DNA of 64,000 bases from Candidatus Harrisonbacteria bacterium (GCA_016867415.1 VGJO01000001.1:7823-71822); one strand, 5' to 3'. Counted from the stretch's first letter, positions 6,486 to 28,906 are shown. Numbers and translations: made by a program. Notes: generated by a model not told the origin, from the letters alone.

Positions 6486-6737
6486 TGGATAAAGATTAAA
6501 AATCTTTTACTCAGCCCGCCTACTTCACCGCCCCCAACTAATTCTGGCATCACAAGAAATTATCACCTTACCCCTGAATGACCTTCTGGAGAAAAGAAGT
6601 ATGGCTTTTTTATGGTGTTGTTTTATCCTCTTGTTCCCCAAAAACAACACCATGAAAAATTCTTTTTGAGGACTGAATGAAAGTCCGCAGGGACTTTCAT
6701 GTGTCATGAAGGGGTAAGGTGAGAATTTCAAAAAAAC
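6486..6737 (+). repeat. Family-X structured element, copy X1 (candidate ncRNA, ~250 nt)
   Basis: Shares with X2 and X3 the blocks CTTCTGGAGAAAAGAAG.ATGG, a long hairpin ATGGTGTTGTTTT...AAAACAACACCAT, TCATGAAGGGG.AAG, and a terminal TTCAAAAAAA. Confidence 0.45.
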
Positions 6738-6781
6738 TATCCACCCGCGAAAGAAGAATAAAAAAAGGCTTTCGCCCTTTT

Positions 6782-9253
6782 TTATTCTTCTTTTCCGTTA
6801 ATTTCTTTTAAGCATATAGACCCGATAATATAATCTGCGTCGTTCAACGACATTAGTCGGACTCCCTGCGTCGCCCGCGACGCCTCCCGTACGCTCTCAA
6901 GGGTCGTCCGAATCATCTGCCCCTTCGCCGAGAGCACAAAAAGATCCTTCTCCTCGGTAATAAGATGCGCCGAAATCAATTTTCCCGTCTTATTGGTAAT
7001 CTTCGCCGTTAAGATTCCCGAGCCGCCTCTTCCTTGCGTCTTATACTCGCTCATCCTTGTCTTCTTCCCATACCCCTTATCCATAATCACGAGAAACTTG
7101 GCTTTCTTAGCTGCTTCTTTGTCAATCACAGTGAGCGAGCTCACCATGTCTCCCGCATGAAGCCGGATCCCCGTCACTCCCGCCGCTACTCTCCCCATTG
7201 CCCGGATATCATCCTCCGAAAATCGGATCGCCTGCCCAAGCACGGTTGTGAGCACCACCTCATCCTTCCCTGTTGATCGCTTCACAAAGTGGAGCATATC
7301 CCCCTCATGGAGACTGATCGCGATGATTCCGCCCCGCCGCACGTTGGCAAAATCCGACAACGCCGTCTTCTTTACGACTCCTTTTTCCGTCGTCATCACA
7401 AGATACCCATCTGATTCCTGATCCGAGTAAGAGACTAAAGCCGTCACCTCCTCTGAAGAGGGAATCTCAAGAAAGCTCTGAATTGCTTTTCCTTTTGAAG
7501 TCCGGAGCGCTACTGGAATCTCCCACACTTTGGTCTGAAAGACTCGTCCGCGGCTCGTAAAGAAAAGGATATTATCGTGCGTATTTGCGTGCGTGATATG
7601 TGAGATGAAGTCCTCCTCCGCTACCTCTGAGCCTATAAGCCCCTTCCCGCCCCGATGCTGTGATTTATATGTGTCCGGTGCTAGCCGCTTGATATACCCT
7701 CCGCGAGAAAGAGTGATAATCGCCTCCTCCTCCGCAATCAAGTCTGCCTCCGAAAATTCCTTAAGCCCCGACATGACGACCTTGGTCCGCCGTGCATCGG
7801 CAAATCGCTCCTTAAGATCCATCATCTCATCCTTGATGAGCGCCAAAATCTTTTTCTCACTTTTCAAAAGCGCTTCCAAGTCCGCAATCAGCTGATGCTT
7901 TTCCTTAAGTTCATCAATAATCTTTTGTACCTCGAGATTTGCGAGTGTTGAAAGCCGCATTTCAAGAATCGCCCCCGCCTGAATTTCCGTAAAGTCAAAC
8001 TTCTTCATGAGGTTAATACTCGCTTCCTCCCGATCCGCAGATTTCTTAATAGTCTTAATCACCGCGTCAATGTCATCGAGCGCCCGCTTGAGTCCCTCGA
8101 GAATATGAGCTCGCTCCTTTGCTTTTTTGAGATCAAACTCCGCCCGCCTGCGTACGACCACTTTCCTATGGCTAATATGCGCACCGATAATATCAAGAAG
8201 AGTGTGAATCCGTGGCTGGATCCCTTCATGAAGGGCCAGCATATTAAAGTGAAAACTCTTCTGCAAATCCGTGTGCTTATAAAGAAGATTGAGGATCTTC
8301 TGTGGCACCGCATCGCGCTTCAATTCAATCACGATCCGCACGCCATCCTTGTCTGTCTCATTACGCACATCCCGGATGCCCTCAATCTTCTTTTCATTGA
8401 CGAGCTCCGCGATCTTTATGAGAAAATCCGAAATATTCGTCTGATAGGGAAATTCCGAAATAATAATCTCCGAGTCCTCAATCTCCGTCACGCCACGGCA
8501 GACTACTGATCCGCGACCAGTGAGATACGCCTGCTGAATGTCTTTTTTATTGTAAATAATGCCTCCTGTAGGGAAATCTGGTCCCTTTACATATTGAAGT
8601 AAATCCTCGCCGGTACACTCTGGGTTTTCGATCATGTGTATAGTGGCATCGATTACTTCACCAAGATTGTGGGGCGGAATAGAGGTAGCCATTCCGACCG
8701 CAATACCAATACCACCGTTTATTAAAAGATTTGGCACCTTCGCTGGCAAAACTCTCGGCTCCTTGAGTCGTCCGTCATAATTATCTACCCAATCAACCGT
8801 CTCTTTCTCAATATCAATCAAGAGCTCCTCTGAGATCTTGCTCATCTTGCACTCGGTATACCGCATAGCGGCCGCGGCATCACCCTCTGGAGAGCCCCAA
8901 TTGCCCTGACCTACAAGAAGGGGATAACGTAGGGAAAAATCCTGCACCATTCTCGTTATCGTGTCATACACTGCCTGATCCCCATGTGGGTGATAGCTTC
9001 CAAGTACTTCTCCAACTACATTTGCCGACTTACGCAACTTGGCCGTGGAAGTAATCCCGAGACCCCACATCGCCCACAAGACTCTCCGGTGCACTGGCTT
9101 CATTCCATCTCGCACGTCAGGAAGCGCCCGCGAAACAATCACCGACATTGCATAGTCAAGATATGACTGTTTAAGCTCATCCGTAATCTCTCTTGGTTCA
9201 ATCCGTCCAAGAATAATCCCTTCCTCCTGCCCTTTTTCCTTCTTAATCGCCAT
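6782..9253 (-). CDS. gyrA: DNA gyrase subunit A
   Basis: 823 aa; N-terminal ...YAMSVIVSRALPDVRDGMKPVHRR... with the active-site Tyr region, and C-terminal beta-pinwheel repeats. No gyrB is adjacent. Confidence 0.95.
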   Translation of the reverse strand: MAIKKEKGQEEGIILGRIEPREITDELKQSYLDYAMSVIVSRALPDVRDGMKPVHRRVLWAMWGLGITSTAKLRKSANVVGEVLGSYHPHGDQAVYDTITRMVQDFSLRYPLLVGQGNWGSPEGDAAAAMRYTECKMSKISEELLIDIEKETVDWVDNYDGRLKEPRVLPAKVPNLLINGGIGIAVGMATSIPPHNLGEVIDATIHMIENPECTGEDLLQYVKGPDFPTGGIIYNKKDIQQAYLTGRGSVVCRGVTEIEDSEIIISEFPYQTNISDFLIKIAELVNEKKIEGIRDVRNETDKDGVRIVIELKRDAVPQKILNLLYKHTDLQKSFHFNMLALHEGIQPRIHTLLDIIGAHISHRKVVVRRRAEFDLKKAKERAHILEGLKRALDDIDAVIKTIKKSADREEASINLMKKFDFTEIQAGAILEMRLSTLANLEVQKIIDELKEKHQLIADLEALLKSEKKILALIKDEMMDLKERFADARRTKVVMSGLKEFSEADLIAEEEAIITLSRGGYIKRLAPDTYKSQHRGGKGLIGSEVAEEDFISHITHANTHDNILFFTSRGRVFQTKVWEIPVALRTSKGKAIQSFLEIPSSEEVTALVSYSDQESDGYLVMTTEKGVVKKTALSDFANVRRGGIIAISLHEGDMLHFVKRSTGKDEVVLTTVLGQAIRFSEDDIRAMGRVAAGVTGIRLHAGDMVSSLTVIDKEAAKKAKFLVIMDKGYGKKTRMSEYKTQGRGGSGILTAKITNKTGKLISAHLITEEKDLFVLSAKGQMIRTTLESVREASRATQGVRLMSLNDADYIIGSICLKEINGKEE

Positions 9254-9377
9254 AAAAATTAGGTAGCCCCATTATTACAAAAAAAACCTCTTTAGGCAAT
9301 CTACTCAAACCAATGCTTTATTAATCAAAAAAAGAATAAGTGGCCCAAACAGTAATAGTTTTTGAGAGTTTTCGGTT

Positions 9378-9406
9378 GTCATTCCGGCCTCCGAGCCGGA
9401 ATCCAG
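9378..9406. repeat. REP-like palindromic unit GTCATTCCGG-CCTCCGAG-CCGGAATCCAG
   Basis: Identical to the 17881-17909 copy. The stem is ATTCCGG/CCGGAAT. Confidence 0.6.
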
Positions 9407-9463
9407 TTCATTTCCTTTAAACTTCTTCTTAATATTATAAATCGAAAAAAGACCAAAAATTAT

Positions 9464-9862
9464 TTACGGAAGATTAGTATCTGGCACTTTCTCTAAACCA
9501 TCATAAGAAAAATCTAATTGATCAGCCTTCGGAAAAATCCGTGGACTTGATTTCTCAACGTTCACCTGTGGATCCAAAAAATCCTTAAAAAAAACAAAAC
9601 TATTCGCCAAGCCATAGCTTGTCGTCTCCGATATTTTTTGGAAACCAAAAGCTACAATTTTTACCGGATCCGGCCGCAGATCCGATTCCTTCACCACTCC
9701 ATTTTGGTCCGCCACCGCGAGCACCTTGTGATCCATCTGATAGAGGAAAATAACGAGCGCTAAAAGTCCTCCTAAAGTAGAAAAAGAGACAAGCCACAGC
9801 CACTTTGTCCTCTCATCCTGATCCCGCAACTCCTTTATATGCCGAATCACCGATCTCATCAC
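9464..9862 (-). CDS. Hypothetical single-pass membrane protein (132 aa)
   Basis: ORF with one hydrophobic helix (LWLVSFSTLGGLLALVIFLY); no recognisable domain. Confidence 0.4.
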   Translation of the reverse strand: MMRSVIRHIKELRDQDERTKWLWLVSFSTLGGLLALVIFLYQMDHKVLAVADQNGVVKESDLRPDPVKIVAFGFQKISETTSYGLANSFVFFKDFLDPQVNVEKSSPRIFPKADQLDFSYDGLEKVPDTNLP

Positions 9863-10065
9863 TTCTAATTGTACCTGATAATAAAAATCCTAAAAACACC
9901 CTCTCAAAAACCTTAACCCCAAATTTTTCATTTATCAGCTCAAATGTAGTAAATACAAAATTTTAAATAGGTAATACAGTGTACTTTCTATCAAATATTA
10001 GAAAAAATAGGCAAGAAAATCATCATATTTTGTCTTTTTCTAATAAAATTGCTACTTTGTAGGGC

Positions 10066-10569
10066 ATGGTTATGCAAACTTTTTCCGGCGACGGCGTAAG
10101 ACTTCAGTCCGGCGGGATTGATATCATATTCGAGCCCAAAGAAGGCGCTATTCCCGCCCGCACCAAAACCAACATTTTTATAAAATCAAAAAGACCCTTC
10201 GAGACCGATGAGCTAAAAGACATAGCAGACAGAGTGATTGCCGGTCCCGGCGAATATGATGTGAAAGGAATTGAGATGTGGGGGTCTCCCGACTGGAGCT
10301 ATCTTCTGCGCGCCGAAAATATCTATATAGGTTTCCTAGGAAGCGAAGAGGGAAATGAGTTGATCGCCAAGGCCGAAGTAATCTTCTTGAAGAACAAAGC
10401 TAAAATGGCCGCATTTAGCAAGCAATTTGAAGCTAAAGTCATAATTGTCCTCGACGACAAAGCTGATCAAGTAGAAAAAGAATTAGGCCTCAAAGCCGAA
10501 TCTTTAGAAAAAATCACCTTAAAAAAGAAAGACCTTGCAAGCGAAGTAAAGCTCTACATATTAAAATAA
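10066..10569 (+). CDS. Hypothetical protein (167 aa)
   Basis: ORF with coding-like composition; no motif I can assign. Confidence 0.4.
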   Translation: MVMQTFSGDGVRLQSGGIDIIFEPKEGAIPARTKTNIFIKSKRPFETDELKDIADRVIAGPGEYDVKGIEMWGSPDWSYLLRAENIYIGFLGSEEGNELIAKAEVIFLKNKAKMAAFSKQFEAKVIIVLDDKADQVEKELGLKAESLEKITLKKKDLASEVKLYILK

Positions 10570-11250
10570 AAAGTAAGAAAGATTTGCATCTAAAATACTT
10601 AAAAGCCTCATAAAAAAACTCCTTGCTCTCATAAAGAAAACAAGGAGTAATTCTATACATTCCGGGCAGAAGTATTTCTACTTCAATTAGATGAGAAAGT
10701 AAGAAAACTCGAAACACCCCTCTCACCCTAAACCCACATTTTTTGAACTAAGGAAGGGAAGACCAGAGTCCAAGAAAAACCTGCCGCGAGGCGAGTCGTT
10801 TCAATAAGAAAGGGTCATTCTTATCTATCCCTCGGAAGACCACTCTACGCCTTACATCGGGAAGTATATAGAATTTTTCACCAAAGAACTAAAAACACCC
10901 TTACTATTCTATAATTATTTTATTTAAAAAGTAAAAATGTACTATTTATAAAGGTTATTGACTATATTGAGAGATATGATATATTTATAAAGTTACTTGG
11001 AATCATGTAGCCGGGTTGGGGTGCTCAACTTCCTCTTTTAATAAAGGATATCCGTGTTGATCCGCGATCACCCGTAGTCGTTCCTTGGTTTCTCCCTCTT
11101 TTTTTTTGAATTCACCCAGCGCCCGAAATGGTGCCTCGGCCAAATAGTCAAATAAACAAAGATTTTGGTCGAGAGAATGAAGGCAGACCATGAAGATTCG
11201 TCGTCTCCTCATTCCTCCGTAGTACTTGACTGCGGACCCCCTCTTACCCT

Positions 11251-11296
11251 CCGCTTCACGTATTCCCCTCAAAGGAACGTGAAGCGGTATTTTTTT
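11251..11296 (+). terminator. Strong intrinsic terminator CCGCTTCACGT-(loop)-ACGTGAAGCGG followed by TTTTTTT
   Basis: 11-bp perfect stem plus T-run, ~680 bp from the nearest upstream plus-strand CDS. This implies an unannotated short transcript ending here. Confidence 0.6.
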
Positions 11297-11412
11297 AGCA
11301 AAAATCCCTTGCAAAACCCCCGAAAATACTCTATAATAAGCCCAACTTCTTTTTCTTTAGAAAATTTTCATAACAAACCTAATAAAAGAATAAAGAAGCC
11401 AATTACAAACCA

Positions 11413-12507: not shown

Positions 12508-12511
12508 ATTC

Positions 12512-12772: not shown

Positions 12773-12975
12773 TTCTTTTTTTCTTCAGTAGATCTGTTTC
12801 ACCCAGGAATTTTTCCCTTCAGAAAAATTCCTGCCCCGTGACCGTTTTTTCAAGCTATTAATTTTCCCTTTTAAAACCTGAAAGAATTTTCATTAAAAAA
12901 AAATTATAAAATAATATCTGCATTACCTCCCTCATTTAAAAACATAAAAAAGGGGAAATAATGCGCGTACACATG

Positions 12976-13096
12976 CGAAGTAATTTTGGAGGACTTTTCG
13001 ATTTTATTTCTGAGCAGCGAACGGAACATACTGGAGCCAAGTCTGTGAGCACGCAACGCAAGAAAAAAATCGAAAAGAGCCCAAAAGTACGAGCAC
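12976..13096 (+). repeat. Family-1 structured repeat, copy B
   Basis: The 5' CTTTTCGATTT is perfectly complementary to the 3' AAATCGAAAAG. The internal CTGAGCAGCGAACGG / AACATACT hairpin / GTGAGCACGCAACGC block is conserved. Confidence 0.6.
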
Positions 13097-13103
13097 TAAA
13101 TAT

Positions 13104-13955
13104 ATGATAAAAAATCGTGAACAGAGAGTTGGAATTTTTATTGATATCCAAAACCTCTACCACTCCTCAAAAAACCTCTACTCTGCAAGAGTAAATTATA
13201 AAGAACTCATGGACACGCTTGTCGCAGATAGGAAGCTCGTCCGGGCTATTGGCTATGTCGTCAAGACCGAATCCACTCTTGGCGAATCCTCCTTCTTTGA
13301 TGCCTTGGTAAAGTCCGGTATTGATCTTCGGATGAAAGATATCCAGATCTTCCCTGATGGCATGAAAAAAGCCGACTGGGATGTCGGCCTCGCTATCGAT
13401 GCCGTCCGCTTAAGTAACGCCCTCGACGTCGTCGTCCTCGTGACCGGCGATGGCGACTTCGTCCCACTCGTCGAGTATCTCCGCTGGGGCCTTGGTAAGA
13501 CCGTTGAGGTCGCCGCTTTTGGTCGCAGCGCTTCAAGTAAGCTCAAAGAATCCGCCGACGAATTTATTAATATGGATGAGTTAAACAAAGTCGTCATGCG
13601 CCGACCTGATATCTTTAATAGCAGAAACAATAACAACCAAAACCAATCTTTTGATCGTTTTCCAAGACGCACAAGCTCTCTCCGAAATGAAGGAGGGGAT
13701 CTTTCTTTTGCTAAATCAAAATATCGGGAAGACATCTCTCGCCTTTCAAGAGATGATGAAGAGTATGTGAGAAAGATAGAGACCGGAGAAGCCTCTCAAG
13801 ATGCGGGAAATAAGAAAAAACCCGCCCGCCGTATCCGGGGAAAAAGTGCTCTCACAGAAAAAAAGTCTGAAGCTAAAAATCCCATCCGCACCCGCAAGAA
13901 AATAAATGAAGATAAAAAAACCAACGAATCATATCTCAATGAACGCAACAACTAA
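13104..13955 (+). CDS. NYN-domain (LabA-like) protein with a long basic, low-complexity C-terminal tail
   Basis: RVGIFIDIQNLY...VVLVTGDGDF.PLVEYLR..GK.VEV... is the LabA/NYN PIN-like fold. The tail is K/R/N-rich and overlaps the pnp start. Confidence 0.75.
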   Translation: MIKNREQRVGIFIDIQNLYHSSKNLYSARVNYKELMDTLVADRKLVRAIGYVVKTESTLGESSFFDALVKSGIDLRMKDIQIFPDGMKKADWDVGLAIDAVRLSNALDVVVLVTGDGDFVPLVEYLRWGLGKTVEVAAFGRSASSKLKESADEFINMDELNKVVMRRPDIFNSRNNNNQNQSFDRFPRRTSSLRNEGGDLSFAKSKYREDISRLSRDDEEYVRKIETGEASQDAGNKKKPARRIRGKSALTEKKSEAKNPIRTRKKINEDKKTNESYLNERNN

Positions 13956-16035
13956 AAAAGTTTTTAAGACTGAATTTGCCGGCCGACCTCTCGAATTTGA
14001 AGTGGGGGAACTCGCTTTTCGCGCCACCAAAGCCGTTCTTGGCCGATACGGTGACACCGAAGTTTTAGTCACCGTCGTGATGGGGGAGTTGGACACTAAT
14101 TTAGATTACATGCCTCTCACCGTAGATTTCGAAGAGCGTTTCTATGCCATCGGCAAGATCCTTGGGAGTCGTTACACTCGCCGCGAAGGAAAATCTTCTG
14201 ATGAAGCTGTCCTCTCCGGCCGGGTCATCGATCGCACCATTCGCCCCCTCTTTGATCAGCGCCTCCGCCGTGAGATCCAAGTCGTCGTCACCACTCTCGC
14301 TCTCGATGGCGAGAATGATCACAATTTTCTTTCTTTAGTAACTGCTTCTCTTGCCCTTCACCTCTCCTCTATTCCTTGGCAAGGACCAGTCGCCGGCGTA
14401 AATCTCGCCGAAGTTGATAACAAAATCCTCGTAAACCCCAAAAATTCAGAAAGCGTCGAAAATACCTTTGAGGGTTTTATCTCTGGTCCCAAAGGCCGGA
14501 TTAATATGATTGAGATCGAAGGCCTAAATGCTCATGAAGAAAAAATCCTCACTGCTTTCAAAGCGGGTCAGGAAGCTATTGATAGCTTGATCGATTTTCA
14601 GGAAAGTATTCGCAAAGAAATCGGCGATAAAAAAATAGATGCCGTACTTGCTTCTTCAAATGCTGATTTGAAAAAAGAAATAAAAGAAAAATTAGGCAAT
14701 GACCTAGAAGCCGCTCTCTTTTTAGGAAAGCGCGACGCAAGCGAAAAGGGAGTAAAAGAGCTTCTTGTAAATCTTATAAAAAGTTATGAAGACAATGGAG
14801 CCGATGAAAAAAGCATAAAAGAACTCTCGCATATTTTCGAAGAACTTTCTGATGAGCTCGTCCACCAAAACGCCTTAGAAAAAAATCTCCGCCCTGATAA
14901 CCGCGGCTTTGAGGAAATCCGCCCTCTAGAGGGGAAAGTCTCCGTCATCAAGCGTGCTCACGGCTCCGCTCTCTTCACGCGCGGCGAGACTCAATCTCTT
15001 GCAGTAGTCACCCTTGCTTCTCCCGACTCCGAAAAAATCGTCGAATCCATTGAAGGCATTCAAAACAAGAGCTTCATGCTTCACTATAATTTTCCGCCAT
15101 ATTCCACGGGTGAAGTCGGTCGGATGCGCGGCCCTGGTCGCCGCGAAATCGGTCATGGCTCTTTAGCCGAAAAAGCTCTCCGCCGCTTAATTCCAAAAAA
15201 AGAGCTCTTCCCATATATCATTCGAATAGTCTCTGAAATCCTTTCTTCCAACGGCTCCTCTTCCATGGCCTCAGTCTGCGCGGGCACGCTCGCGATGATG
15301 GACGCCGGCATTCCTCTTCTTGCTCCCGCCGCCGGTATTGCTATTGGCCTCATGAGTAATGAAAAAGGGGATTATAAGATTTTGACCGACATTCAAGGCG
15401 CAGAGGATCACTATGGAGATATGGACTTCAAAGTTGCCGGCACCGAAACTGGTATTACCGCCATCCAGCTTGATACTAAAGTTTCAGGCATCACTCTTAA
15501 TACCATAAAAGACGCCCTAGAAGCGGGGAAAAAAGCCCGTAAGGAAATTCTCGAAACAATCATCTCAACAATTAGTGCCCCCCGTGCCGCTCTTTCTCCC
15601 TTTGCCCCCTCAGTCTTTTCAGTCTCTATCAATCCCGACAAGATTGGCTTATTGATCGGCCCCGGCGGCAAGACTATTAATAGCATCATTGCCGATACTG
15701 GCATCGATAATATTGATGTGAATCAAGATGGTAAGATCTATGTCTACGCGAGCAACCAAGAAAAAGGCTGGCGCGCCAGAGAACGGATCGAACAACTAAC
15801 GAAAGACTATTCAATAGGCGACATCGTCACTGGCAAAATCGTCCGTATCTTTGAATTCGGCGCTATTCTCGAATTCGCTCCTGGTAAAGACGGTATGATC
15901 CACGTCTCCGAACTCAAAGATGGTTTCGTTAAAAAAGTAGAAGATGTGGTAAAGCTTGGCGAAGAAGTCACGGCCAAAATCGTAAAAATGGAAGGCGACA
16001 AAATCGGCCTCTCCCTCAAAGCCCTCAAAAAGTAG
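13906..16035 (+). CDS. pnp: Polynucleotide phosphorylase / polyadenylase
   Basis: Two RNase PH domains, the FxRxxGPGRREIGHG motif, and C-terminal KH and S1 domains. The start may be the internal MNATTKK. Confidence 0.95.
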   Translation: MKIKKPTNHISMNATTKKVFKTEFAGRPLEFEVGELAFRATKAVLGRYGDTEVLVTVVMGELDTNLDYMPLTVDFEERFYAIGKILGSRYTRREGKSSDEAVLSGRVIDRTIRPLFDQRLRREIQVVVTTLALDGENDHNFLSLVTASLALHLSSIPWQGPVAGVNLAEVDNKILVNPKNSESVENTFEGFISGPKGRINMIEIEGLNAHEEKILTAFKAGQEAIDSLIDFQESIRKEIGDKKIDAVLASSNADLKKEIKEKLGNDLEAALFLGKRDASEKGVKELLVNLIKSYEDNGADEKSIKELSHIFEELSDELVHQNALEKNLRPDNRGFEEIRPLEGKVSVIKRAHGSALFTRGETQSLAVVTLASPDSEKIVESIEGIQNKSFMLHYNFPPYSTGEVGRMRGPGRREIGHGSLAEKALRRLIPKKELFPYIIRIVSEILSSNGSSSMASVCAGTLAMMDAGIPLLAPAAGIAIGLMSNEKGDYKILTDIQGAEDHYGDMDFKVAGTETGITAIQLDTKVSGITLNTIKDALEAGKKARKEILETIISTISAPRAALSPFAPSVFSVSINPDKIGLLIGPGGKTINSIIADTGIDNIDVNQDGKIYVYASNQEKGWRARERIEQLTKDYSIGDIVTGKIVRIFEFGAILEFAPGKDGMIHVSELKDGFVKKVEDVVKLGEEVTAKIVKMEGDKIGLSLKALKK

Positions 16036-16087
16036 ATTGTCATTCCGGAATCTATAATCCTAAATAAAAAGGCTGGGACGTGGCACC

Positions 16088-16381
16088 GGCCCTCCAAAGG
16101 GGTGAATCTCTTTTATAAAAAAGTTGAAGACTTTTTATTCGCCCCTCCACCTCCCCTCTGATCTCCCTAATATCCCTTTTTCTCTAATAATGCGCTAAGA
16201 GAAACTTTTTATTTCCCTTGAATGGCTTTCTGGAGGAGAAAAGCATGGTTTTTTCATGATATTATTTTTTTCTTCTTATTCCCCAAAAATAACATCGTGA
16301 AAAATTTTCTCTGAAGCCTAAATAAAAAATTACTGGAGTTTTTATGGGTCATGAAGGGGAAAGAAAAAGTTTCTAAAAAAA
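16088..16381 (+). repeat. Family-X structured element, copy X2 (~290 nt)
   Basis: GGCCCTCCAAAGGGGTGAATCT..., hairpin AAAAAGTTGAAGACTTTTT, CCCCTCCACC, GGAGGAGAAAAGCATGG, hairpin ATGATATTATTTTT...AAAAATAACATCGT, TCATGAAGGGGAAAG, TTCTAAAAAAA. Confidence 0.5.
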
Positions 16382-16411
16382 TTTAAATAATATGATAAAA
16401 TAATTACTACT

Positions 16412-17878
16412 ATGGACATGGATCCCAAAAAAAATAATCCTGACCCAAGTTCTTGGGACTCTTTTTTCAAAGAAGGCACTGTTCCGCCGACTTCTCCTGC
16501 CTCTGAATCTCCTAAAGAAATCCTTCCCCAATCTACTGAAACATCCCCACCCTTCAATCCTTTCGCCTCAGTAAATAACACCTCTCAACCTTCTCCTGCT
16601 CCCACCCCTGAGCCCATGAAAGAAACTGCCGCTCCGCCTTCCCGAATTCCTTTTGAAAACAGTAAATTTTTCGATCCTAAGTCTATCTCTTCTACTCCTG
16701 AACCTATTAAACCTATTGAAGAATCTCATTCCGAACCTATCGAAGAAATAAAAATCACTCCTAAAGTTCCAAACGAGCATTCACCCTTCTTTGCTCCCGA
16801 AAATCCTTTCAACTTTCCTAATAGCTCAGTAAATAATCCATTTAAAGACGCTAAAGAAAATCAGCCTAAAGCCCAGAGCATTGAAGCCGGCCTTCCCGAA
16901 ACTCGCAGCCTTCCCGAAATGCAGCTTCGCACCATGAGTTCCGACCTTGCTTCAATAAAAAGCTCCGGCGGCAACCTCCCCGAAGCTCTCATAGTTAGCG
17001 AAAAAGAGCTCGACACTAAAAGCCCTCTTTTCAAACCCGAGACCACCATTCCCCAAAGTCCCGCGAATGACATTTTAGTAGAAAAAAAATCAGGCCTAAG
17101 TCTCCCGATAAAAACCCTCCTAATTTTCCTCGCACTGATCGTCCTAGGTGGTCTCGGCTTTATTATCTACTTCCTCATGAAAGACCTCTTCTTTCCCGAA
17201 ACCTTAGATCTTTCTCCTTCAGTTAATATCGAGCCAAATACTCCCGCAATGACTATTGATCGCATGCCGCCAGAGACAAGAGAGGAGCCGACCATGCTTC
17301 CTCACACCTCCGCCTTTGGCCTCACCCCCGAGTCAAAAGATCTCGCCGTTATTCAGATCAATAATTATAATCTCGTCGACATCCTATCCGCCTTCCAGGG
17401 TAAAGTTAACCTCACTCGCCCCGAAGACACTCTCCAAGAAATTGTCGTTGGTACTCCGGAAGGTCAGGCTATTTTCTCTAAATATTTCCTCACCCTCCTC
17501 CCCGAGCTCCAAGGCGCGCCCTTAAGCGCCGCTCTCGAGACCTACTTCGACAAAGACTTCACTGCCTTCCTCTACTACGAAAAAGGAAAAGCCTATCCAG
17601 GCCTCATCGCCAAAAAACTGCCCAATAGCAACTTCGATCCCGAACTTCTCAAAAATATCGAATCTGCTTCCTTAAAAAATCTCTACCTCGCTCTGCCCAA
17701 GGGAGAGATCAGCCCTTTCAAGGATAGTGTCATCGCTGGCGTCACCACCCGCTATGGAAGTTTCTTCGAAGATCGTCCCGCCGCGGTCAACTACGGTCTC
17801 TTCGGTGATAATCTCATTATCACTACTACCAACAAATCCCTCTTCAAAGTCCTCGATCTCCTCCGCGCCTCCAACTGA
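16412..17878 (+). CDS. Hypothetical Pro/Ser-rich membrane-anchored protein (488 aa)
   Basis: Long low-complexity P/S/E-rich N-terminal half, one TM helix (LLIFLALIVLGGLGFIIYFLM), and a globular C-terminal half. Confidence 0.5.
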   Translation: MDMDPKKNNPDPSSWDSFFKEGTVPPTSPASESPKEILPQSTETSPPFNPFASVNNTSQPSPAPTPEPMKETAAPPSRIPFENSKFFDPKSISSTPEPIKPIEESHSEPIEEIKITPKVPNEHSPFFAPENPFNFPNSSVNNPFKDAKENQPKAQSIEAGLPETRSLPEMQLRTMSSDLASIKSSGGNLPEALIVSEKELDTKSPLFKPETTIPQSPANDILVEKKSGLSLPIKTLLIFLALIVLGGLGFIIYFLMKDLFFPETLDLSPSVNIEPNTPAMTIDRMPPETREEPTMLPHTSAFGLTPESKDLAVIQINNYNLVDILSAFQGKVNLTRPEDTLQEIVVGTPEGQAIFSKYFLTLLPELQGAPLSAALETYFDKDFTAFLYYEKGKAYPGLIAKKLPNSNFDPELLKNIESASLKNLYLALPKGEISPFKDSVIAGVTTRYGSFFEDRPAAVNYGLFGDNLIITTTNKSLFKVLDLLRASN

Positions 17879-17880
17879 TT

Positions 17881-17909
17881 GTCATTCCGGCCTCCGAGCC
17901 GGAATCCAG
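17881..17909. repeat. REP-like palindromic unit GTCATTCCGG-CCTCCGAG-CCGGAATCCAG immediately after the stop codon
   Basis: Exact copy of the 9378-9406 unit. Confidence 0.6.
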
Positions 17910-18002
17910 TACATTTTCTATCAAATTAATTTTAAAAAGAAAAAAGCGGCGACCTTACAGCCACCGCTTGTTTGAGATTTTTCCGTCTTCCCGTGATGCG
18001 CC

Positions 18003-18716
18003 TCAGGTCGCGACGGTATCATTAGCTACAGCAGTTGCCGAAGCCACTTCTTCCGTCTCAGCGTCCTGAGCTTCTTTCGCCGCCTTGAGAATATCCCGCC
18101 GTGTGCAAGGCGAAATATGCTCCTTCTTGCGCAATCCTCGCACCTGGGAGACTCGGAGACCAGCGATTTTGGCGATCATCGTGTCCGGCAACTTGCCCAA
18201 GAACGGCCGAATCTTCTTTTCGATATCGACCACCTCCGGAAATCCGTAGATAATCCCAATCGAAGTAAACGCATTCCGAAGCGTCCCGTGATGCACGATG
18301 GTGCTGTGATAGAGCGCCGGATCCTCCCGCCTGAAAGCGTCAGGATCCAACACCTCTTTCCCACGCAATCGAGCGAGCGACTGGCTAGCGCAAAAAAAGG
18401 GCACTTCCATCGCCGACACCAACTCTTGCCACACAAGCTTCGGCGGAAAGCGATGGCCACATCTCGTACAAGTAGTGTTAAGATCGTTCGGATCATCCAC
18501 AAATCCTTTGAGGATCTCGGCCGGCGTCAAAGACCGATTGCATTTGGGACAAAGCGCCTGCGGCCGAAACTTCTCATGACCATGGATAGCGCCCACCAAT
18601 TCCAATCGCATACTGAGCATCTGCGCCTGGCAGAGCATCCGCTGTGCCTGCGTCATCCGCTGTGCCTGCGTCATCCGCTGTTCCATTGAATGGTGCTGAG
18701 AAAAAGTAAGCATCAT
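18003..18716 (-). CDS. Hypothetical protein with N-terminal QRMTQA tandem repeats, a CxxC...CxxC zinc-ribbon and a C-terminal HTH-like segment (237 aa); GC-rich relative to its surroundings
   Basis: CPKCNRS...CTRCGHRF; C-terminal ...TMIAKIAGLRVSQVRGLRKK... The locally elevated GC and an overlapping 190-aa plus-strand ORF make the frame assignment uncertain. Confidence 0.4.
   Translation of the reverse strand: MMLTFSQHHSMEQRMTQAQRMTQAQRMLCQAQMLSMRLELVGAIHGHEKFRPQALCPKCNRSLTPAEILKGFVDDPNDLNTTCTRCGHRFPPKLVWQELVSAMEVPFFCASQSLARLRGKEVLDPDAFRREDPALYHSTIVHHGTLRNAFTSIGIIYGFPEVVDIEKKIRPFLGKLPDTMIAKIAGLRVSQVRGLRKKEHISPCTRRDILKAAKEAQDAETEEVASATAVANDTVAT
18646..18691. repeat. 18-bp tandem repeat x2.5 (CATCCGCTGTGCCTGCGT)
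   Basis: Direct reading; encodes QRMTQAQRMTQAQRM on the minus strand. Confidence 0.85.
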
Positions 18717-19683: not shown

Positions 19684-19684
19684 A

Positions 19685-23451: not shown

Positions 23452-23650
23452 TATGGTCATTCCAGGCTCGACCTAGAATCTATACAAACAAATAATCCTT
23501 CATTTACGTTTTTGATAAAGCAATAGCATCCCCAAGCATAAAAGCCCTAGGATTTTTTTCTTAGTACGAGGAGAAAATACAGTAAAGAAAAATATCCTTT
23601 GCATAAAAGCGAAGTGATGCCAAAATCCCTCTAAATATAACAATGCGTAA

Positions 23651-23770
23651 AGCGCCGGATTTTTGGAGGGCATTTCGTCTTTTCTTCTGAGTATGGGACG
23701 GAGCATACTGTGGAAAGTATGTGAGTACCTAACGGAAGAAAAAAGATAAAATGCACCCCAAAATACCAGC
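23651..23770 (+). repeat. Family-1 structured repeat, copy C (immediately upstream of tRNA-Ile)
   Basis: GCGCCGGATTTTTGGAGGGCATTT...CTGAGTATGGGACGGAGCATACT hairpin GTATGTGAGTACCTAACGGAAGAAAAAAGATAAAATGCACCCCAAAATACCAGCG. The closing stem is GCATTT/AAATGC. Confidence 0.6.
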
Positions 23771-23780
23771 GAAAACCAGA

Positions 23781-23853: not shown

Positions 23854-24009
23854 CAAAATAAAAATACCCGCAAGGGTATTTTTATTTGGCGTGGGAAGGG
23901 TCGGGAAGGGTATTTAATACCCTTCCCGTGTCAGATATATGTGAAACCGAGGGTTTCGCAAAATAAATATCTGCAAAATTTTATTTTTAATATTTCCTTC
24001 CCACGCCCA
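23838..24009. repeat. Copies of the tRNA-Ile 3' end (CCTTCCCACGCC), one inverted at 23888-23899 and one direct at 23996-24009, forming a long hairpin with the tRNA 3' end
   Basis: Direct reading. CCTTCCCACGCCCACAAAATAAAAATACCC-GCAA-GGGTATTTTTATTTGGCGTGGGAAGG is a ~27-bp hairpin, and a second hairpin GGGAAGGGTAT-TTAA-TACCCTTCCC follows. Confidence 0.7.
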
Positions 24010-24206
24010 TATTCCTTATTCCTCTTTTTTCTGATATCTAATAAGACTTGTCCGCTCTCCCGGCATTCCTTTTCTTTGTCCTAAAGGGGAAAAAATACTC
24101 GGCTTCTTATAGCTATTAGCGAAGATGGGTCACTTTTATGTACACAAAAAACAATGTATCGCGACAACGCAGAAAAAAATCGCAAAATCAGTCAAACAAG
24201 CTAGCT

Positions 24207-25160
24207 CTAAAAATGCTTAACTAGGGGATTCTCTGCGCCTAGTACTTCAAAATGCAAATGGCACCCCGTTACCCCATGTGTCTTACCTGTATTCCCCATG
24301 AGCCCCAACTTTTCCCCCTGAGAAACCTTAGTTCCTAAGACTACTTCCATATTTTTCAAGTGTGCATACCGAGTCTCAATTCCTTCCGGACTCATCACTA
24401 TTACAATAGTCCCATAGCCATTATTCCATCCCACCTCCGCTCGAATCACCTCTCCCTCTGTCGCTGCAAAGACCGGCGTCCCACACTCATTGGCAATATC
24501 CACCGCATTATTATAGTGAAGAGCGCCCCAGTTCCATCCCGAAGCGGGAATAGCAATCGTCGCCTTTCCATCCCGCACGAGAATCGTGTTTTCACTCACC
24601 AAAATTCCCTTTGGCACAAATATAGTTACCCCCTCTTTTATCTTCTGATTTTTATTGTACGCTTCAAGCTCTAAAAGAGTCAGTCCATACCGTGACGCGA
24701 TCATCACCGCATCCTCTCGACTTTTTACTGTATAAAAAATACCGTTCATCGGGGGAATTACCACTCTCTCCCCGCCTAAAGTCTTTGCCTCATGCATAAG
24801 TTCCGGATTCGCCGCTACAATCGTCTCAAGCGACACTCCGTATCGTGCCGCAATCTCTCCTGCTGTTTCTCCAGCTCTCGCCTTATAAAAAATAGTCCTC
24901 TCCCGTTCTGCTCCCTCACTCACTTCTCCACTTAAAAAAAATCCTGATCTAAGAGAAAAAACGCTTGTCGATAAAATTTGCTCTGAATTATCTTTTAAAA
25001 ACACCTCGGAAAAAAGAGCCTGCTCCTCCGGACCTCCTAAAATCTGACTCTCTGCCACTTTCGTAGGAAAATCTGTGATACAATCATATCCTATCAGTGC
25101 CGCAAACGCCGCAATGATTATGATGCGCCGACTCACCACTGCAAATGGCAAGCGCCGCAT
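24207..25160 (-). CDS. M23 family metallopeptidase with two LysM domains
   Basis: LysM-like segments (GETAGEIAARYGVSLETIVAANP; IASRYGLTLLELEAYN) and the M23 motifs H..AVDI...G.PV.A...G.V and GNTG.THG...HLHFEV. Confidence 0.85.
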   Translation of the reverse strand: MRRLPFAVVSRRIIIIAAFAALIGYDCITDFPTKVAESQILGGPEEQALFSEVFLKDNSEQILSTSVFSLRSGFFLSGEVSEGAERERTIFYKARAGETAGEIAARYGVSLETIVAANPELMHEAKTLGGERVVIPPMNGIFYTVKSREDAVMIASRYGLTLLELEAYNKNQKIKEGVTIFVPKGILVSENTILVRDGKATIAIPASGWNWGALHYNNAVDIANECGTPVFAATEGEVIRAEVGWNNGYGTIVIVMSPEGIETRYAHLKNMEVVLGTKVSQGEKLGLMGNTGKTHGVTGCHLHFEVLGAENPLVKHF

Positions 25161-25280
25161 ATATGTAAGGAATGTATCAATAGCTCAGCCATTCTAGCAC
25201 ATCCTAAACCCCTATTGCAAAGCCTAAAAAATAGCAGATTTTCTTCTAGATTTTGCCAATATAAACAGGCGTCTTCAGTT

Positions 25281-25405
25281 CCGAAAAATAATTTTTGATA
25301 AAGTTTCGTGATTCTTTTCGAGCAGCGAGCCGAAAATACATAGCGAACGGTATGCGAGCATACAGCACAGAAAAAACCGTGAAATTTGCCAAAAATACGA
25401 GCGCC
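25281..25405 (+). repeat. Family-1 structured repeat, copy D (5'-divergent), ending 15 nt before the uvrD start
   Basis: TCGAGCAGCGAGCC...CATAGCGAACGGTATGCGAGCATACAGCACAGAAAAAACCGTGAAATTTGCCAAAAATACGAGCGCC. Confidence 0.5.
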
Positions 25406-25419
25406 ATCAAAATCGTACA

Positions 25420-27219
25420 ATGCTCAAAAATCCCAAGTACAACGATAAGCAATTAGAAGCCATCAACCATGGAAATGGTCCTTTATTAATCCTCGCCGGC
25501 GCCGGTAGTGGCAAGACGAGCACCTTAGTCGGCCGGATCATCCACCTCCTCGAGCAGGGAACTCCGCCCGAAAGCATCTTAGCCATCACCTTCACTAATA
25601 AAGCCGCCCGAGAAATCCGCGAACGAGTAAAAAAAGTCCTCCACAATAAAGATCCTGAGATCGCCAGAAACATCTTCCTTGGCACCTTCCACTCCTTTGG
25701 TGCCCTCCTCCTTCGAAAACTTGCCCCCCACGCCCGCCGCACTCCCAGCTTCACCATCTATGACAGCTCCGACTCTGAAGGCCTGGTCAAAAAAATCCTA
25801 AAAGAACTCAATCTCCCCGAAAATCCCTCTCGCAAGCCCGCCAAAGTCCTTGGAGAATTTTCTCGCATCAAAAGCCGCCGCGAAGAATCTACCGACGAAC
25901 TCATAAACAATCTCTTTAAGACCTATGAAGAGCGCCTCGAGCGCAATAACGCCTTTGACTTTGATGACTTGATAGTAAAACCCATCGAGATTCTTGAGAG
26001 AGAAGAGAATCTCGCCGCCCGCTACCACTCTCTCTACGACTATATCCTGATCGATGAGTTTCAAGATACCAACACCGCCCAATATTCCTTAATTCGTCTC
26101 TTAGCCGGCAAAGGGAATGTAAATGTCGTCGGCGACGACGCTCAATCCATCTATGGCTGGCGCCACGCCGACTACCGTATTTTTCTAAATTTCGAATCCG
26201 ACTGGCCCGGCACAAAAATCGTCAAACTCGAAGAAAATTACCGCTCCACCGGCACCATCTTGAAAGCCGCCAATCATCTAATCGGTTTCAATAAATTCCA
26301 AAAAGAAAAAACTCTCTTCACTAAAAATCCCGAAGGAAAAGAAATTAAAGTGGTGATTGCCGATGGCCCCGAATCCGAAGCTGATTATATAGTAGGGGAG
26401 ATTCGCAATATGGTCCGCGATGGAGAAAGTATGCAGGAAATCGCCCTTCTCTACCGTACCAATGCCCAATCCCGCGCTCTTGAGCAAGCTCTCTTAGGTG
26501 AAGGTATTCCATACCAAATCTTTGGCGGCTTAAAATTTTACGAACGCATGGAAATCAAAGACATCTTAGCCGGCCTTCGGTTGATCGCGAATCCCACCGA
26601 CTCTGCCTCCTTCGACCGCCTCGAAAAAAACCTTGGCAAACGCATTACTAAAAAAGTAGTGGGACGCTTGAAAGAAAAATCTGGTGCCGACAGTCCCGCC
26701 CCTCTTATTAATTTCTTTCTTGAAGTTAGTGACTACGTCCAATCCTTAAAAACAGAAAAAAATGCCCTCGACCGCTTAGAAAACATCCAAGAGCTTATCA
26801 AGTATGCCGAAGGAAAGTCTGATCTTGTGAGTTTCTTAGAAGAGGTCAGCCTCGTCCAAAGCGTTGATGACCCTTCCGGGTCACGGCTCCCGGGCGTCAA
26901 TCTGCTCACCATTCATCTTGCAAAAGGCCTTGAGTTTAATCGCGTCTTTGTAGTCGGCTGCGTCGACGGCATCCTCCCGCACGAACGTTCCTTGAGCTCT
27001 CACATTGATATTGAGGAAGAACGTCGCCTTATGTATGTCGCGATCACTAGAGCCCGCCATGAGCTAGTGATCACCATCTATGGTATTCCCTCCCGCTTCC
27101 TAAATGAGCTCCCGCAAGAAGTCCTTTCTCTCCAAAGCCTCGCTCCCCGCCGCCGTTTCAGCGACTCCCGTTCCTTTGATGACCTCGAAGAAGACGCTTG
27201 GCTCTCCTATGATAATTAA
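25420..27219 (+). CDS. uvrD: ATP-dependent DNA helicase, UvrD/PcrA/Rep family (599 aa)
   Basis: Motif I AGAGSGKTSTLV, motif II-like DEFQDTN, and the remaining helicase motifs in order. Confidence 0.9.
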   Translation: MLKNPKYNDKQLEAINHGNGPLLILAGAGSGKTSTLVGRIIHLLEQGTPPESILAITFTNKAAREIRERVKKVLHNKDPEIARNIFLGTFHSFGALLLRKLAPHARRTPSFTIYDSSDSEGLVKKILKELNLPENPSRKPAKVLGEFSRIKSRREESTDELINNLFKTYEERLERNNAFDFDDLIVKPIEILEREENLAARYHSLYDYILIDEFQDTNTAQYSLIRLLAGKGNVNVVGDDAQSIYGWRHADYRIFLNFESDWPGTKIVKLEENYRSTGTILKAANHLIGFNKFQKEKTLFTKNPEGKEIKVVIADGPESEADYIVGEIRNMVRDGESMQEIALLYRTNAQSRALEQALLGEGIPYQIFGGLKFYERMEIKDILAGLRLIANPTDSASFDRLEKNLGKRITKKVVGRLKEKSGADSPAPLINFFLEVSDYVQSLKTEKNALDRLENIQELIKYAEGKSDLVSFLEEVSLVQSVDDPSGSRLPGVNLLTIHLAKGLEFNRVFVVGCVDGILPHERSLSSHIDIEEERRLMYVAITRARHELVITIYGIPSRFLNELPQEVLSLQSLAPRRRFSDSRSFDDLEEDAWLSYDN

Positions 27220-27302
27220 ATTTCCATAGGCCGCGTGGGCGTAATCGCCTTTACAGGCCCATAGGCGACGTGAGAATTATGTACTCATATTTCTTTTTCG
27301 TC

Positions 27303-27367
27303 GTCATTCCGGGCTTGTATTACCTCACCATATCATAATCGCAGCGGCGGGTTATTCCAGATGGCAG
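27303..27367. repeat. REP-like unit, long variant (GTCATTCCGGGC...GGGTTATTCCAGATGGCAG)
   Basis: Shares the GTCATTCCGG and TTCCAG ends with the short units. Confidence 0.4.
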
Positions 27368-27460
27368 ATTAAAAATATTGTCAAATACAAAAAAAAACTT
27401 TATTCTATAAAAAATTTCCTTGCGCCAACTACTAATTACTAAATACTAACTACTATTCTC

Positions 27461-28237
27461 ATGCCTCGTCTCGGCCAACATTTCCTCAAAAATAAAGAGG
27501 TGATCAAAAAAATCATCAATAGTCTTTCCTTACAAGCAGGGGGGACCGTGCTCGAAATCGGTCCTGGCGAAGGCGCGTTGACCGGTGAACTTCTCACAAA
27601 AAATATTCACCTTCTCGCTATCGAAAAAGACCGCGATCTCATCCACCACCTCACAAGAAACTTTAAAAAAAGTAATTTCGACCTAAAAAGCGGCGATGTT
27701 CGCGACCTTCTCTCCGAAGTTACAGAAAGTATAAGAGGGGAGTACAAACTTGTCGGCAATCTTCCGTATTATTTGACCGGCAGCCTTCTTCGCGATCTCG
27801 TCGACCTCAAAAACAAACCTACTCTTGCTATCTTTATGATCCAACGTGAAGTCGCTGATCGCCTCACAGCTCAAAAAGGCGAGCAAAATCTCCTCTCCGC
27901 CGCCATAAGCTACGCCTATGAATCCCACTTCCTCTTCTCCGTTCCCGCCCGAGATTTTACCCCTCCGCCCAAAGTCGATTCCGCCGTCATCTCCCTCACC
28001 CCTCGCGCAACTCCTCTCACCCCCGAAAAAGACCCTTATTTCAAACTTATTAAAGTCATCTTCAAACAACCTAGGAAAACCCTAGTAAACAATCTCTGTG
28101 ACGGCCTCCACCTTGGCAAAAACGACGTTTCCGAGCTCGTAAAAACCCATCACCTCGCCCTAAACGCCCGCCCCCAAGACCTCTCCCTCAATAATATCCT
28201 TGATTTACTTACCTCTCTCCTCTTCCTTTTAAAATAA
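27461..28237 (+). CDS. rsmA: 16S rRNA (adenine1518/1519-N6)-dimethyltransferase RsmA/KsgA
   Basis: MPRLGQHFL N-terminus, the SAM-binding VLEIGPGEGALT motif, and the NLPY motif. Confidence 0.9.
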   Translation: MPRLGQHFLKNKEVIKKIINSLSLQAGGTVLEIGPGEGALTGELLTKNIHLLAIEKDRDLIHHLTRNFKKSNFDLKSGDVRDLLSEVTESIRGEYKLVGNLPYYLTGSLLRDLVDLKNKPTLAIFMIQREVADRLTAQKGEQNLLSAAISYAYESHFLFSVPARDFTPPPKVDSAVISLTPRATPLTPEKDPYFKLIKVIFKQPRKTLVNNLCDGLHLGKNDVSELVKTHHLALNARPQDLSLNNILDLLTSLLFLLK

Positions 28238-28578
28238 AGGAATATTATCGTTCTGGATTTGTCCGCCGTAGCTTTAGCAGAGGCGAGTCATCCTAAACTT
28301 GCTTTACCCCGCTTTAACTTCAACACAAGTGGGATTCAGGATCCAGTAATTCACTTCTGGGAGGTACTTATAAATCCCTTTCCTTTTTCTGTATTTAACA
28401 TAAAAAAACCTTATTCTACCTAAATTATTGAGACTTTCCATCCTCCCTAAAAAGCAAGAGAAATGTCCGACACTGGTTAAAACTTCGGTTTTTTCTGACC
28501 TCCCTCATATCCCTATGAACTTGATCACTCGTGGGGATTTTTATTCTTTAAACAATAAAAAGGCCAGAGCGCAGCGAA

Positions 28579-28906
28579 GGCCCTCCAAAGAGGTGGATCT
28601 TTGTTTTCTAAACAGAGGATAGAAATATCGATTGAGTATAATCGACATTTCTATAAAAAGATTTTCAATCTTTTTATCTCCCCTCCACCCTCTTTTTTTC
28701 ATCACCTCTGAATCTCTACACTGCTAAAGAACCCTCACCCCTTCCATGAGTGACCTTTTGGAGAAAAGAAGCATAGTTTCTTGTAGTGATGTATTACCTG
28801 GATTCATCTCCTCAATACATAGCCATAAAAAATTATTTTCAAAAATTGCATGAAAGTTCGCTGGAACTTTCATGCATCTTGAAGGAAAGAGGTGAAGATT
28901 CTAAAA
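28579..28906 (+). repeat. Family-X structured element, copy X3 (~330 nt), immediately upstream of the T4SS-like cluster
   Basis: GGCCCTCCAAAGAGGTGGATCT, hairpin AAAAGATTTTCAATCTTTTT, CCCCTCCACC, TGGAGAAAAGAAGCATAG, hairpin GCATGAAAGTTCGCTGGAACTTTCATGC, TTGAAGGAAAG, TTCTAAAAAA. Confidence 0.5.

Follow-up and report, generated by a model that had tools for sequence, protein, structure and literature searches.

A candidate structured RNA family of Parcubacteria with three paralogues in a Candidatus Harrisonbacteria genome

X is an intergenic element with a core of 175 to 190 nucleotides (nt) that occurs in three copies (X1, X2, and X3) in a 64-kb stretch of DNA (the window, whose coordinates are used throughout) from a metagenome-assembled genome (MAG) of Candidatus Harrisonbacteria, which belongs to the Parcubacteria/Paceibacteria in the Candidate Phyla Radiation (CPR). 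The three copies share one three-way-junction fold that is maintained by compensatory base changes, and elements of the same architecture were found in two other Parcubacteria. We give even chances to the reading that X is an uncatalogued, lineage-specific family of non-coding RNAs of Parcubacteria, encoded on the + strand and represented by three paralogues in this genome. To our knowledge, few lineage-specific regulatory RNAs have been described for the CPR, and a full-text search of the literature turned up no account of this kind of RNA, or of 6S RNA, in these bacteria.

Three homologous copies share a core

The original prediction had described X as a unit of about 300 nt in three copies, and all three were found at the coordinates it gave and are homologous. 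By blastn, X1 matches X2 with 73.5% identity over 170 nt (E value, 1e-22) and X3 with 72.5% identity over 167 nt (E value, 8e-18); the direct match between X2 and X3 is confined to a 5' block of about 60 nt (E value, 1e-4). In MAFFT alignments, the mean column identity rises from 67% for the complete intergenic stretches to 81% for the core. It is this core that the three copies have in common, and the remainder of the proposed 300-nt unit consists of locus-specific 5' additions in X2 and X3. Likewise, the ordered sequence blocks reported for the unit exist, but GGCCCTCCAAAG.GGTG.ATCT and CCCCTCCACC are confined to X2 and X3 (X1 has the remnant of a reverse transcriptase [RT] pseudogene at this position instead), and two blocks deviate in X3, which has TGGAGAAAAGAAGCATAG as well as TCTTGAAGGAAAGAG in place of TCATGAAGGGG.AAG. 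No fourth full copy was detected by nhmmer or by a covariance model (CM) with filters off in the window plus 10 kb past each end, which together make about 84 kb, or an estimated 12% of the genome. Seven other assemblies cover X2, with an identical or nearly identical sequence (they differ by three single bases in total), and as these strain copies are virtually identical, they add no covariation.

The cores are composed as follows (P1 to P5, helices).

X1 core, 6556 to 6729, + strand: P1, 6556-6575/6710-6729; GA/GA loop, 6576-77/6708-09; P1b, 6578-6582/6703-6707; P2, 6585-6587/6670-6672; GGA, 6588-6590; P3, 6591-6598/6660-6667; P4, 6606-6624/6641-6659; P5, 6677-6686/6691-6700, with loop GCAG.
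X2 core, 16200 to 16374, + strand: P1, 16200-16219/16355-16374; P1b, 16222-16226/16348-16352; P2, 16229-16231/16315-16317; GGA, 16232-16234; P3, 16235-16242/16305-16312; P4, 16250-16269/16286-16304; P5, 16322-16331/16336-16345, with loop ACUG.
X3 core, 28728 to 28902, + strand: P1, 28728-28747/28883-28902; P1b, 28750-28754/28876-28880; P2, 28757-28759/28843-28845; GGA, 28760-28762; P3, 28763-28770/28833-28840; P4, 28777-28795/28814-28832; P5, 28850-28859/28864-28873, with loop GCUG.

The core fold is maintained by covariation

RNAalifold applied to the three cores returned a structure of 63 pairs. P1 (about 19 bp) joins both ends of the core and is separated by a symmetric GA/GA internal loop from the 5-bp P1b, the two making up a closing helix of about 24 bp in all. 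At the center lies a small three-way junction with the 3-bp P2 and an unpaired GGA, from which emerge P3 and P4, a long hairpin capped by a variable loop, and P5, a hairpin with a four-base RCWG loop. A conserved RNA fold with compensatory changes in two hairpins had been proposed from the start; both hairpins are present as described, hairpin 2 being P3 plus P4, and the idea of a conserved fold holds. Only part of that fold had been seen, with a third covarying hairpin (P5; X1 6677-6700) and the long closing helix (X1 6556-6582 with 6703-6729) missed.

Across the three copies, 93.7% of the cells of the 63 pairs are paired, and 22 pairs are altered on both sides. Shuffled controls had a mean of 7.7 such double-sided changes, with 0 of 500 reaching 22, and sliding the partners by 1 to 3 columns left 1 to 4. 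Each copy on its own folds far below the energies of its shuffles (z scores of -3.5 to -8.2). The covariation includes P2, in which CG changes to UA and UA to CG, indicating that the three-way junction is closed. X1 forms every one of the 63 model pairs (60 are Watson-Crick and 3 are G-U on the + strand), with a minimum free energy (MFE) of -77.4 kcal/mol (z, -8.15) on the + strand versus -68.3 kcal/mol on the - strand and a CM score of 213.9 bits, and X2 has 55 Watson-Crick and 5 G-U pairs on the + strand (184.6 bits). The most degenerate copy is X3 (180.3 bits), with 51 Watson-Crick pairs and 3 G-U pairs on the + strand; of its 9 mismatches, 6 would become G-U pairs on the - strand. No terminator and no alternative structure that would sequester a start codon was conserved among the copies.

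The same set of pairs also bears on the strand. G-U pairs on the + versus the - strand number 3:0 in X1, 5:0 in X2, and 3:6 in X3. The GC skew in this region is about -0.25, the + strand being strongly C-rich, and we infer that this composition should make the + strand drift toward A-C mismatches. The ratio of 8:0 in the two intact copies, X1 and X2, despite the skew points to selection on a + strand RNA. The strand of the model is the more stable one in four of five elements (X1, X2, and the two homologues described below), with X3 as the exception.

Elements with the same architecture occur in two other Parcubacteria

The host lineage is isolated, since the nearest protein to its PNPase (gene at 13906-16035) outside the host MAG is only 57% identical in a search of 5.8 billion proteins. 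Homologues of X were sought with covariance models in the loci around the PNPase genes of the nearest relatives; the E values of these home-built models are rough. Two loci, L036 (Parcubacteria bacterium Gr01-1014_3) and L037, come from two other Parcubacteria whose PNPase is 56 to 57% identical to that of the host, and each gave a match: L036 at 18537-18688 (39.5 bits; E value, ∼1e-7; three-sequence model) and L037 at 4547-4698 (24.4 bits; E value, ∼1e-3; four-sequence model). Independent MFE folds of the two (-77 kcal/mol and z of -7.3 for L036, -92.8 kcal/mol and z of -9.3 for L037) both contain the closing helix, the small helices, the unpaired GGA, the long hairpin, and a second hairpin with a GCUG loop. 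Adding L036 raises the number of compensatory pairs to 40 of 63, with 93.4% of the cells paired, although this alignment was fitted to the model and is therefore biased toward it. The five elements, from three genera, have one architecture with a core of 150 to 190 nt, in which the helix sequences are almost wholly different and the pairing is kept. A GA/GA or AGA/GA internal loop is found in four of the five, and in P5 the RCWG loop is followed by GGA/GAG.

The gene order pilins, solute-binding protein (SBP), gyrA, S1, S15, NYN, and pnp is conserved in the loci of the relatives. The L037 element is located at the position of X1, just past the gyrA stop codon and on the same strand relative to gyrA, so that the window and L037 share the arrangement pilins-SBP-element-gyrA-S1-S15-NYN-pnp. 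The upstream gene in L037 has an ordinary terminator of its own, after which come an A-rich stretch, the closing helix, and UUUUAUUUUU, a U-tract. In L036, a DksA/TraR-type gene and comM lie 175 nt apart, and the element takes up this gap, antisense to both. These two genes are 18 nt apart in locus L038 and 0 nt apart in L039, and the covariance model found no X-like copy in the 22 kb of either locus. At the site of X2, the relatives have only 9 to 128 nt after pnp.

A further match in the window, X0 (1862-1919), was rejected as a member. It scores 32 bits but is a perfect 14-bp hairpin with A/T flanks, and an ordinary terminator in L039 scores alike. The X0 hairpin lies 22 nt 5' of a xerC-like integrase gene.

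Genomic context and the relation to downstream genes

The window is ordinary chromosome, with genes for a solute-binding protein, gyrA, S1, pnp, topA, dprA, uvrD, and ksgA, a cluster resembling a type IV secretion system (T4SS), and dnaA-dnaN at 42 to 45 kb. X1 is flanked by the SBP gene (+) and the 3' end of gyrA (-), X2 by pnp and the gene for a 488-amino-acid (aa) Pro-rich membrane protein, and X3 by ksgA and the gene that opens the T4SS-like cluster. This cluster carries PrgI, VirB4/TraG-type ATPase, and T4SS-pilin domains. The dnaA (42091) and dnaN (43781) genes mark the replication origin (window 41900-44900); the + strand GC skew is -0.2 to -0.3 to the left of it and weakly negative to the right, an asymmetric switch. 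The features around the cores are the following.

X1 hairpin 1 (AAAGATT/AATCTTT), 6490 to 6506, + strand: left edge of X1, overlapping the end of the RT remnant.
Hairpin of 17 to 20 bp directly 3' of X1, 6749 to 6795, no strand assigned: overlaps the gyrA stop codon (6782).
X2 5' extension, 16063 to 16199, + strand, common to X3 only: A-run and GC hairpin, 16071-16091; mini-hairpin GCCCTCCAAAGGGG, 16089-16103; TATAAA, 16113-16118; hairpin 1, ∼16119-16136; CCCCTCCACC, 16142-16151; C/T-rich linker; repeats D6 and D8.
X3 5' extension, 28554 to 28727, + strand: terminator-like block as in X2, 28554-28612; X3-specific hairpin, 28619-28654; TATAAA, 28652-28657; hairpin 1, ∼28655-28675; CCCCTCCACC, 28680-28689.
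TAAAAT box, 16396 to 16414, + strand: 10 nt 5' of the ATG at 16412 of the 488-aa Pro-rich membrane protein.
TAAAAT box, 28936 to 28952, + strand: 8 nt 5' of the ATG (28950) of the first T4SS-like gene.

The 5' extension shared by X2 and X3 (A-run, GC hairpin, mini-hairpin, TATAAA, hairpin 1, and C-rich block) is absent in X1 and in the L036 and L037 elements, and we therefore regard it as locus furniture outside the conserved RNA. The X3-specific hairpin has 14 to 15 bp, with one A-C mismatch on the + strand that is a G-U pair on the - strand.

X2 and X3 directly precede surface-protein and T4SS-like genes, as had been predicted: the gap between the end of the element and the start codon is 38 nt for X2 (ATG at 16412) and 48 nt for X3 (ATG at 28950). 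A function as a leader or riboswitch for these genes, which had been raised as a possibility to check, is not supported by the comparison of all copies. The two downstream proteins are unrelated (no paralogy between them was detected, and neither has a match in Pfam or NCBIfam), and the element is upstream of and co-oriented with a gene in only two of the five copies, X2 and X3. X1 and the L037 element are convergent with gyrA, and the L036 element is antisense to both of its neighbors, so three of the five copies cannot lead a downstream gene.

We therefore regard it as quite unlikely that X is a cis-acting 5' leader, riboswitch-like or mRNA stabilizing, of the 16412 gene and the T4SS-like operon, with transcription starting near the TATAAA and leaders of about 287 nt. 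Several observations would fit such a leader, namely the co-orientation of X2 and X3 directly upstream of 16412 and 28950, the equal distance of the TATAAA from both ATGs, the preference for the + strand, the absence of a + strand terminator between X and the ATG in both X2 and X3, and the ability of the C/U-rich upstream segments to pair alternatively with the purine-rich 3' strand of P1. In L036, an orthologue of this membrane protein is encoded about 490 nt from the element; its gene (L036 16822-18048) is on the opposite strand with the DksA-like gene between, and the proximity may be coincidence. Besides the contexts of X1, L036, and L037, the TATAAA-bearing 5' extension is missing from the homologues, and the -10-like boxes located 8 to 10 nt before the two ATGs speak against a leader. 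No Shine-Dalgarno sequence was found before any gene in the window (upstream regions of 42 open reading frames [ORFs]), and together with these boxes this indicates that the mRNAs may start 3' of X. The TAAAAT box at 16396 is likely the promoter of a leaderless or short-leader mRNA 3' of X2. Many ATGs of the window lie 6 to 10 nt after a TATAAT-like box (33613, 48963, 16412, and 28950), and the sequence suggests that leaderless mRNAs are widespread in this organism. The start codon region is unpaired in the predicted folds, and no riboswitch expression platform was found at X2 or X3 (no terminator, an open start region, and no Shine-Dalgarno sequence).

Termination is another role that the positions of X might suggest, since every copy is located at a gene end. 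In L037, convergent genes enclose an A-tract, the long helix, and a U-tract, as in a terminator, and the X model also detects plain terminator hairpins. We nevertheless consider it improbable that the elements are elaborate transcription terminators or insulator hairpins between genes. On the + strand, the helix of X1, X2, and X3 is followed by an A-run instead of a U-run, termination needs nothing nearly as elaborate as a three-way junction with unpaired motifs conserved across genera, and X1 and the L037 element each adjoin a separate ordinary terminator. For X1 this is the hairpin at 6749-6795 (-24.3 kcal/mol on the + strand and -29.6 kcal/mol on the - strand; z, ∼-6 to -7), which is likely a bidirectional terminator that would end an X1 transcript.

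X matches no known RNA family and is not a coding or DGR remnant

The original prediction could not match X by eye to RNase P, tmRNA, SRP, or 6S RNA, and the Rfam scan it proposed, which also covered riboswitches, HEARO/IS605 RNAs, and RT-associated motifs, gave no match to X either: at gathering thresholds, the whole window contains two tRNAs only. E-value scans of all five elements against the 4227 models of Rfam 15 gave only scattered hits that fell far short of the thresholds, none of which recurred across copies. From the CsrB/RsmZ type, RF00166 reached no more than a weak match at the level of chance, located next to X1 and on the other strand.

The concern that the conserved blocks might be protein-coding remnants was also allayed, since the ORFs are unconserved and X has no RT homology. 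That X is the remnant of a duplicated coding gene or a type I toxin-antitoxin locus is hardly credible to us. X1 and X2 do contain short ORFs (MTFWRKEVW..., 25 aa, and MAFWRRKAW..., 30 aa), and the pairing of the 5' and 3' ends is hok-like. However, the two ORFs are frameshifted relative to each other, the frame in X3 stops after 8 codons, and in the best frame X1 and X2 have 9 differing codons, 8 of which encode another amino acid, so that the substitutions are nearly all non-synonymous and yet compensatory in the helices. The L036 and L037 sequences are quite different again. A type I toxin-antitoxin locus was rejected for lack of a conserved small hydrophobic ORF, X3 being truncated and X1 and X2 frameshifted.

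The RT sequence at X1 is a minus-strand frame (6291-6500; 62 to 76 aa) that represents the C-terminus of an RT of the diversity-generating retroelement (DGR) type. The remnant (window 6276-6506, - strand; about 70 aa) has no internal stop and is cut off exactly at the left edge of X1. It is 60 to 70% identical to many Parcubacteria RTs, and among solved structures it is nearest to the DGR RT of the Bordetella phage (8ub7). A tblastn search with a full-length related RT, from locus L005, found nothing in X1 to X3 beyond the remnant, with homology ending at the X1 edge. The L005 relative has the DGR hallmark motif and a template repeat/variable repeat (TR/VR) pair, and the X model has no match in this intact DGR locus. 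A DGR TR/VR or spacer RNA was rejected as an identity of X, the differences between copies being mostly transitions at all four bases and not adenine specific, and the adjacent RT being a remnant. We treat the remnant as a junction in a decaying region that has no functional link to X.

Some observations concern this RT family itself. Locus L005 (2426-4381) holds an intact DGR with a 123-nt TR/VR pair and a 329-aa RT that was split by the gene caller. L002 (3630-4375) holds a decayed DGR, in which a copy of the TR continues in frame into RT motif 4 (…VNWNGG|NLTSQ…). Most database entries of the family are C-terminal fragments of about 75 to 133 aa, many of them beginning with MNEFDQF, and in L005, the one intact locus checked, this is a gene-calling artifact.

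X compared with mobile intergenic repeats

The main competing explanation is that X resembles ERIC, BIME, or MITE sequences, as a structured repeat or a non-autonomous mobile element that spreads from one intergenic region to another without a dedicated cellular function, its fold being kept by transcription within neighboring mRNAs or by the needs of propagation. We consider this unlikely, though a serious rival. The distribution would suit it: there are three copies in 84 kb here and 0 to 1 copy in 22 kb in the relatives, the sites are lineage specific (9 to 128 nt after pnp in relatives), and the L036 copy splits the otherwise adjacent dksA-like and comM genes in opposite orientation. The closing helix resembles terminal inverted repeats, and by eye, CTAA flanks X2, X3, and the L036 copy on each side, which is not clearly so for X1 or L037. 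In five independent Logan assemblies, the contigs (L028-L033 and L035) stop within X2 at the same base (∼16229-16257), and the next contig of sample SRR7990525 begins 29 to 30 nt earlier than the break, a k-1 overlap. Such breaks indicate a branch in the assembly graph, caused either by a near-identical copy elsewhere or by a population variant in P4. The window also contains two more hairpin repeat families, Y (3062/12973/23650) and TTGTCATTCCGG... (9376/17879).

No two of the five copies, however, have the same P1 ends, which covary instead and could thus not be recognized by any one transposase, and no sequence-conserved terminal inverted repeats were found among the five copies. The site shared by X1 and L037 across genera indicates long vertical inheritance under selection, and the unpaired GGA and the RCWG loop are conserved across genera as well. 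No transposase is nearby; the only mobile trace is the DGR RT remnant, without homology to X. The pattern of presence and absence fits either reading: X2 is present and nearly identical in all eight assemblies that reach its site, and empty sites are seen in distant genera only. X shares with ERIC, BIME, and MITE sequences a multi-copy intergenic occurrence as imperfect palindromes, with pairing maintained and either orientation within operons, but differs from them in having no conserved termini, a low copy number in the 84 kb covered, one syntenic locus across genera, and conserved junction and loop motifs.

The Y family (3062-3176, 12973-13086, and 23650-23762) consists of elements of about 115 nt with 68 to 79% identity that form a long imperfect hairpin with 9 compensatory pairs. 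The copies lie beside tRNA-Leu, 5' of the NYN-pnp operon, and 5' of tRNA-Ile, and Y-related A-rich tails precede the ATGs at 25420 and 53090. A third repeat, TTGTCATTCCGGCCTCCGAGCCGGAATCCAG (a GC hairpin after TTGTCA), is located at gene ends (9376-9441 and 17879-17944, with shorter copies at ∼16036-16062 and 57380-57410). In its copy just past the pnp stop codon, the hairpin is collapsed and is followed by a perfect TATAAT.

DISCUSSION

X is similar to orphan RNA motifs (raiA, ROOL/GOLLD/OLE, and the Weinberg/Breaker collections) in being intergenic, longer than 150 nt, and built of multiple helices with covariation, and such motifs are likewise confined to one bacterial lineage, sometimes with several copies per genome. 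Unlike the orphan motifs in Rfam, X matches none of its models and has five members, so far from Parcubacteria only. With 6S RNA (RF00013), X has in common a similar size (150 to 190 nt), a long closing stem formed by the ends, and a long apical stem; the gammaproteobacterial 6S RNA likewise has a hairpin on the 3' side of its central region, and some bacteria have at least two 6S paralogues. In place of the large open asymmetric bubble of 6S RNA, X has a tight three-way junction with a covarying 3-bp helix, and no Rfam 6S match to X was obtained even at an E value of ≤10. As in CsrB/RsmZ, GGA is exposed in the junction and in a hairpin loop and, by analogy, could bind a dimeric protein, but X has two conserved GGA sites (3 to 6 in all) and not many repeats. 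A motif search of six-frame translations of about 185 kb (the window plus L006, L011, and L036 to L039) found no CsrA-like ORF.

If X is an RNA family of its own, the X RNA would be a separate unit, a small RNA that is either transcribed independently or produced by processing. Independence from the neighboring genes is indicated by the antisense location of the L036 element, by the separate upstream terminator and the U-tract of L037, and by the terminator hairpin that follows X1. The element may have been inherited vertically at the gyrA site and then amplified to the X2 and X3 positions, each of them between the end of one gene and the promoter of the following one. The junction GGA and the P5 RCWG-GGA/GAG loop, presented on helices that are free in sequence, form a pattern that we infer to be typical of protein- or RNA-binding scaffolds; the two exposed conserved GGA-containing motifs, in a geometry fixed by the junction, could thus serve as a protein-binding scaffold or decoy. 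Read-through may place X2 and X3 in the 5' part of the downstream mRNAs, which would not be a defining property of the family. A more specific proposal, made by analogy and put forward tentatively, as it may well be wrong, is that X is the founding member of CPR three-way-junction small RNAs, acting in trans as a protein-binding regulator (an analogue of 6S or CsrB) or as a ribonucleoprotein subunit, with its ancestral locus at gyrA and extra paralogues before surface-protein and T4SS-like genes in this genome of the episymbiont type.

Several points weigh against the interpretation of X as a non-coding RNA family. Only five sequences are available, three of which are paralogues of one genome. 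The L037 score lies within the range of plain hairpins (20 to 32 bits; window 1862-1919 and L039 12590-12640), and because the score alone is unconvincing, the homology of this element rests on topology, motifs, and synteny. Pattern scans of genome, metagenome, and viral collections, with an exact pattern that is too strict for diverged copies, yielded chance hits only (a tRNA gene in L001, and L014 to L025 without a model match); the scanned collections evidently lack contigs of this organism. X3 favors the - strand by G-U count and by energy, a scan before the cores found no convincing conserved sigma-70-type promoter, and the strand, the ends, and the transcription itself of the X RNA are all deduced. 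Finally, mobile repeats would behave much as X does, with several copies scattered patchily and one of them inserted within an operon.

CPR/Patescibacteria genomes are tiny and have very little spare DNA. A fold that is kept across genera and multiplied in one genome suggests that the RNA probably matters to these cells. The covariance model, the conserved motifs, and the gyrA anchor provide a handle for a survey of the group and for a search for protein partners. Should X instead prove to be selfish, a structured repeat of this kind would be one of the few documented to shape intergenic regions and promoters in streamlined genomes.

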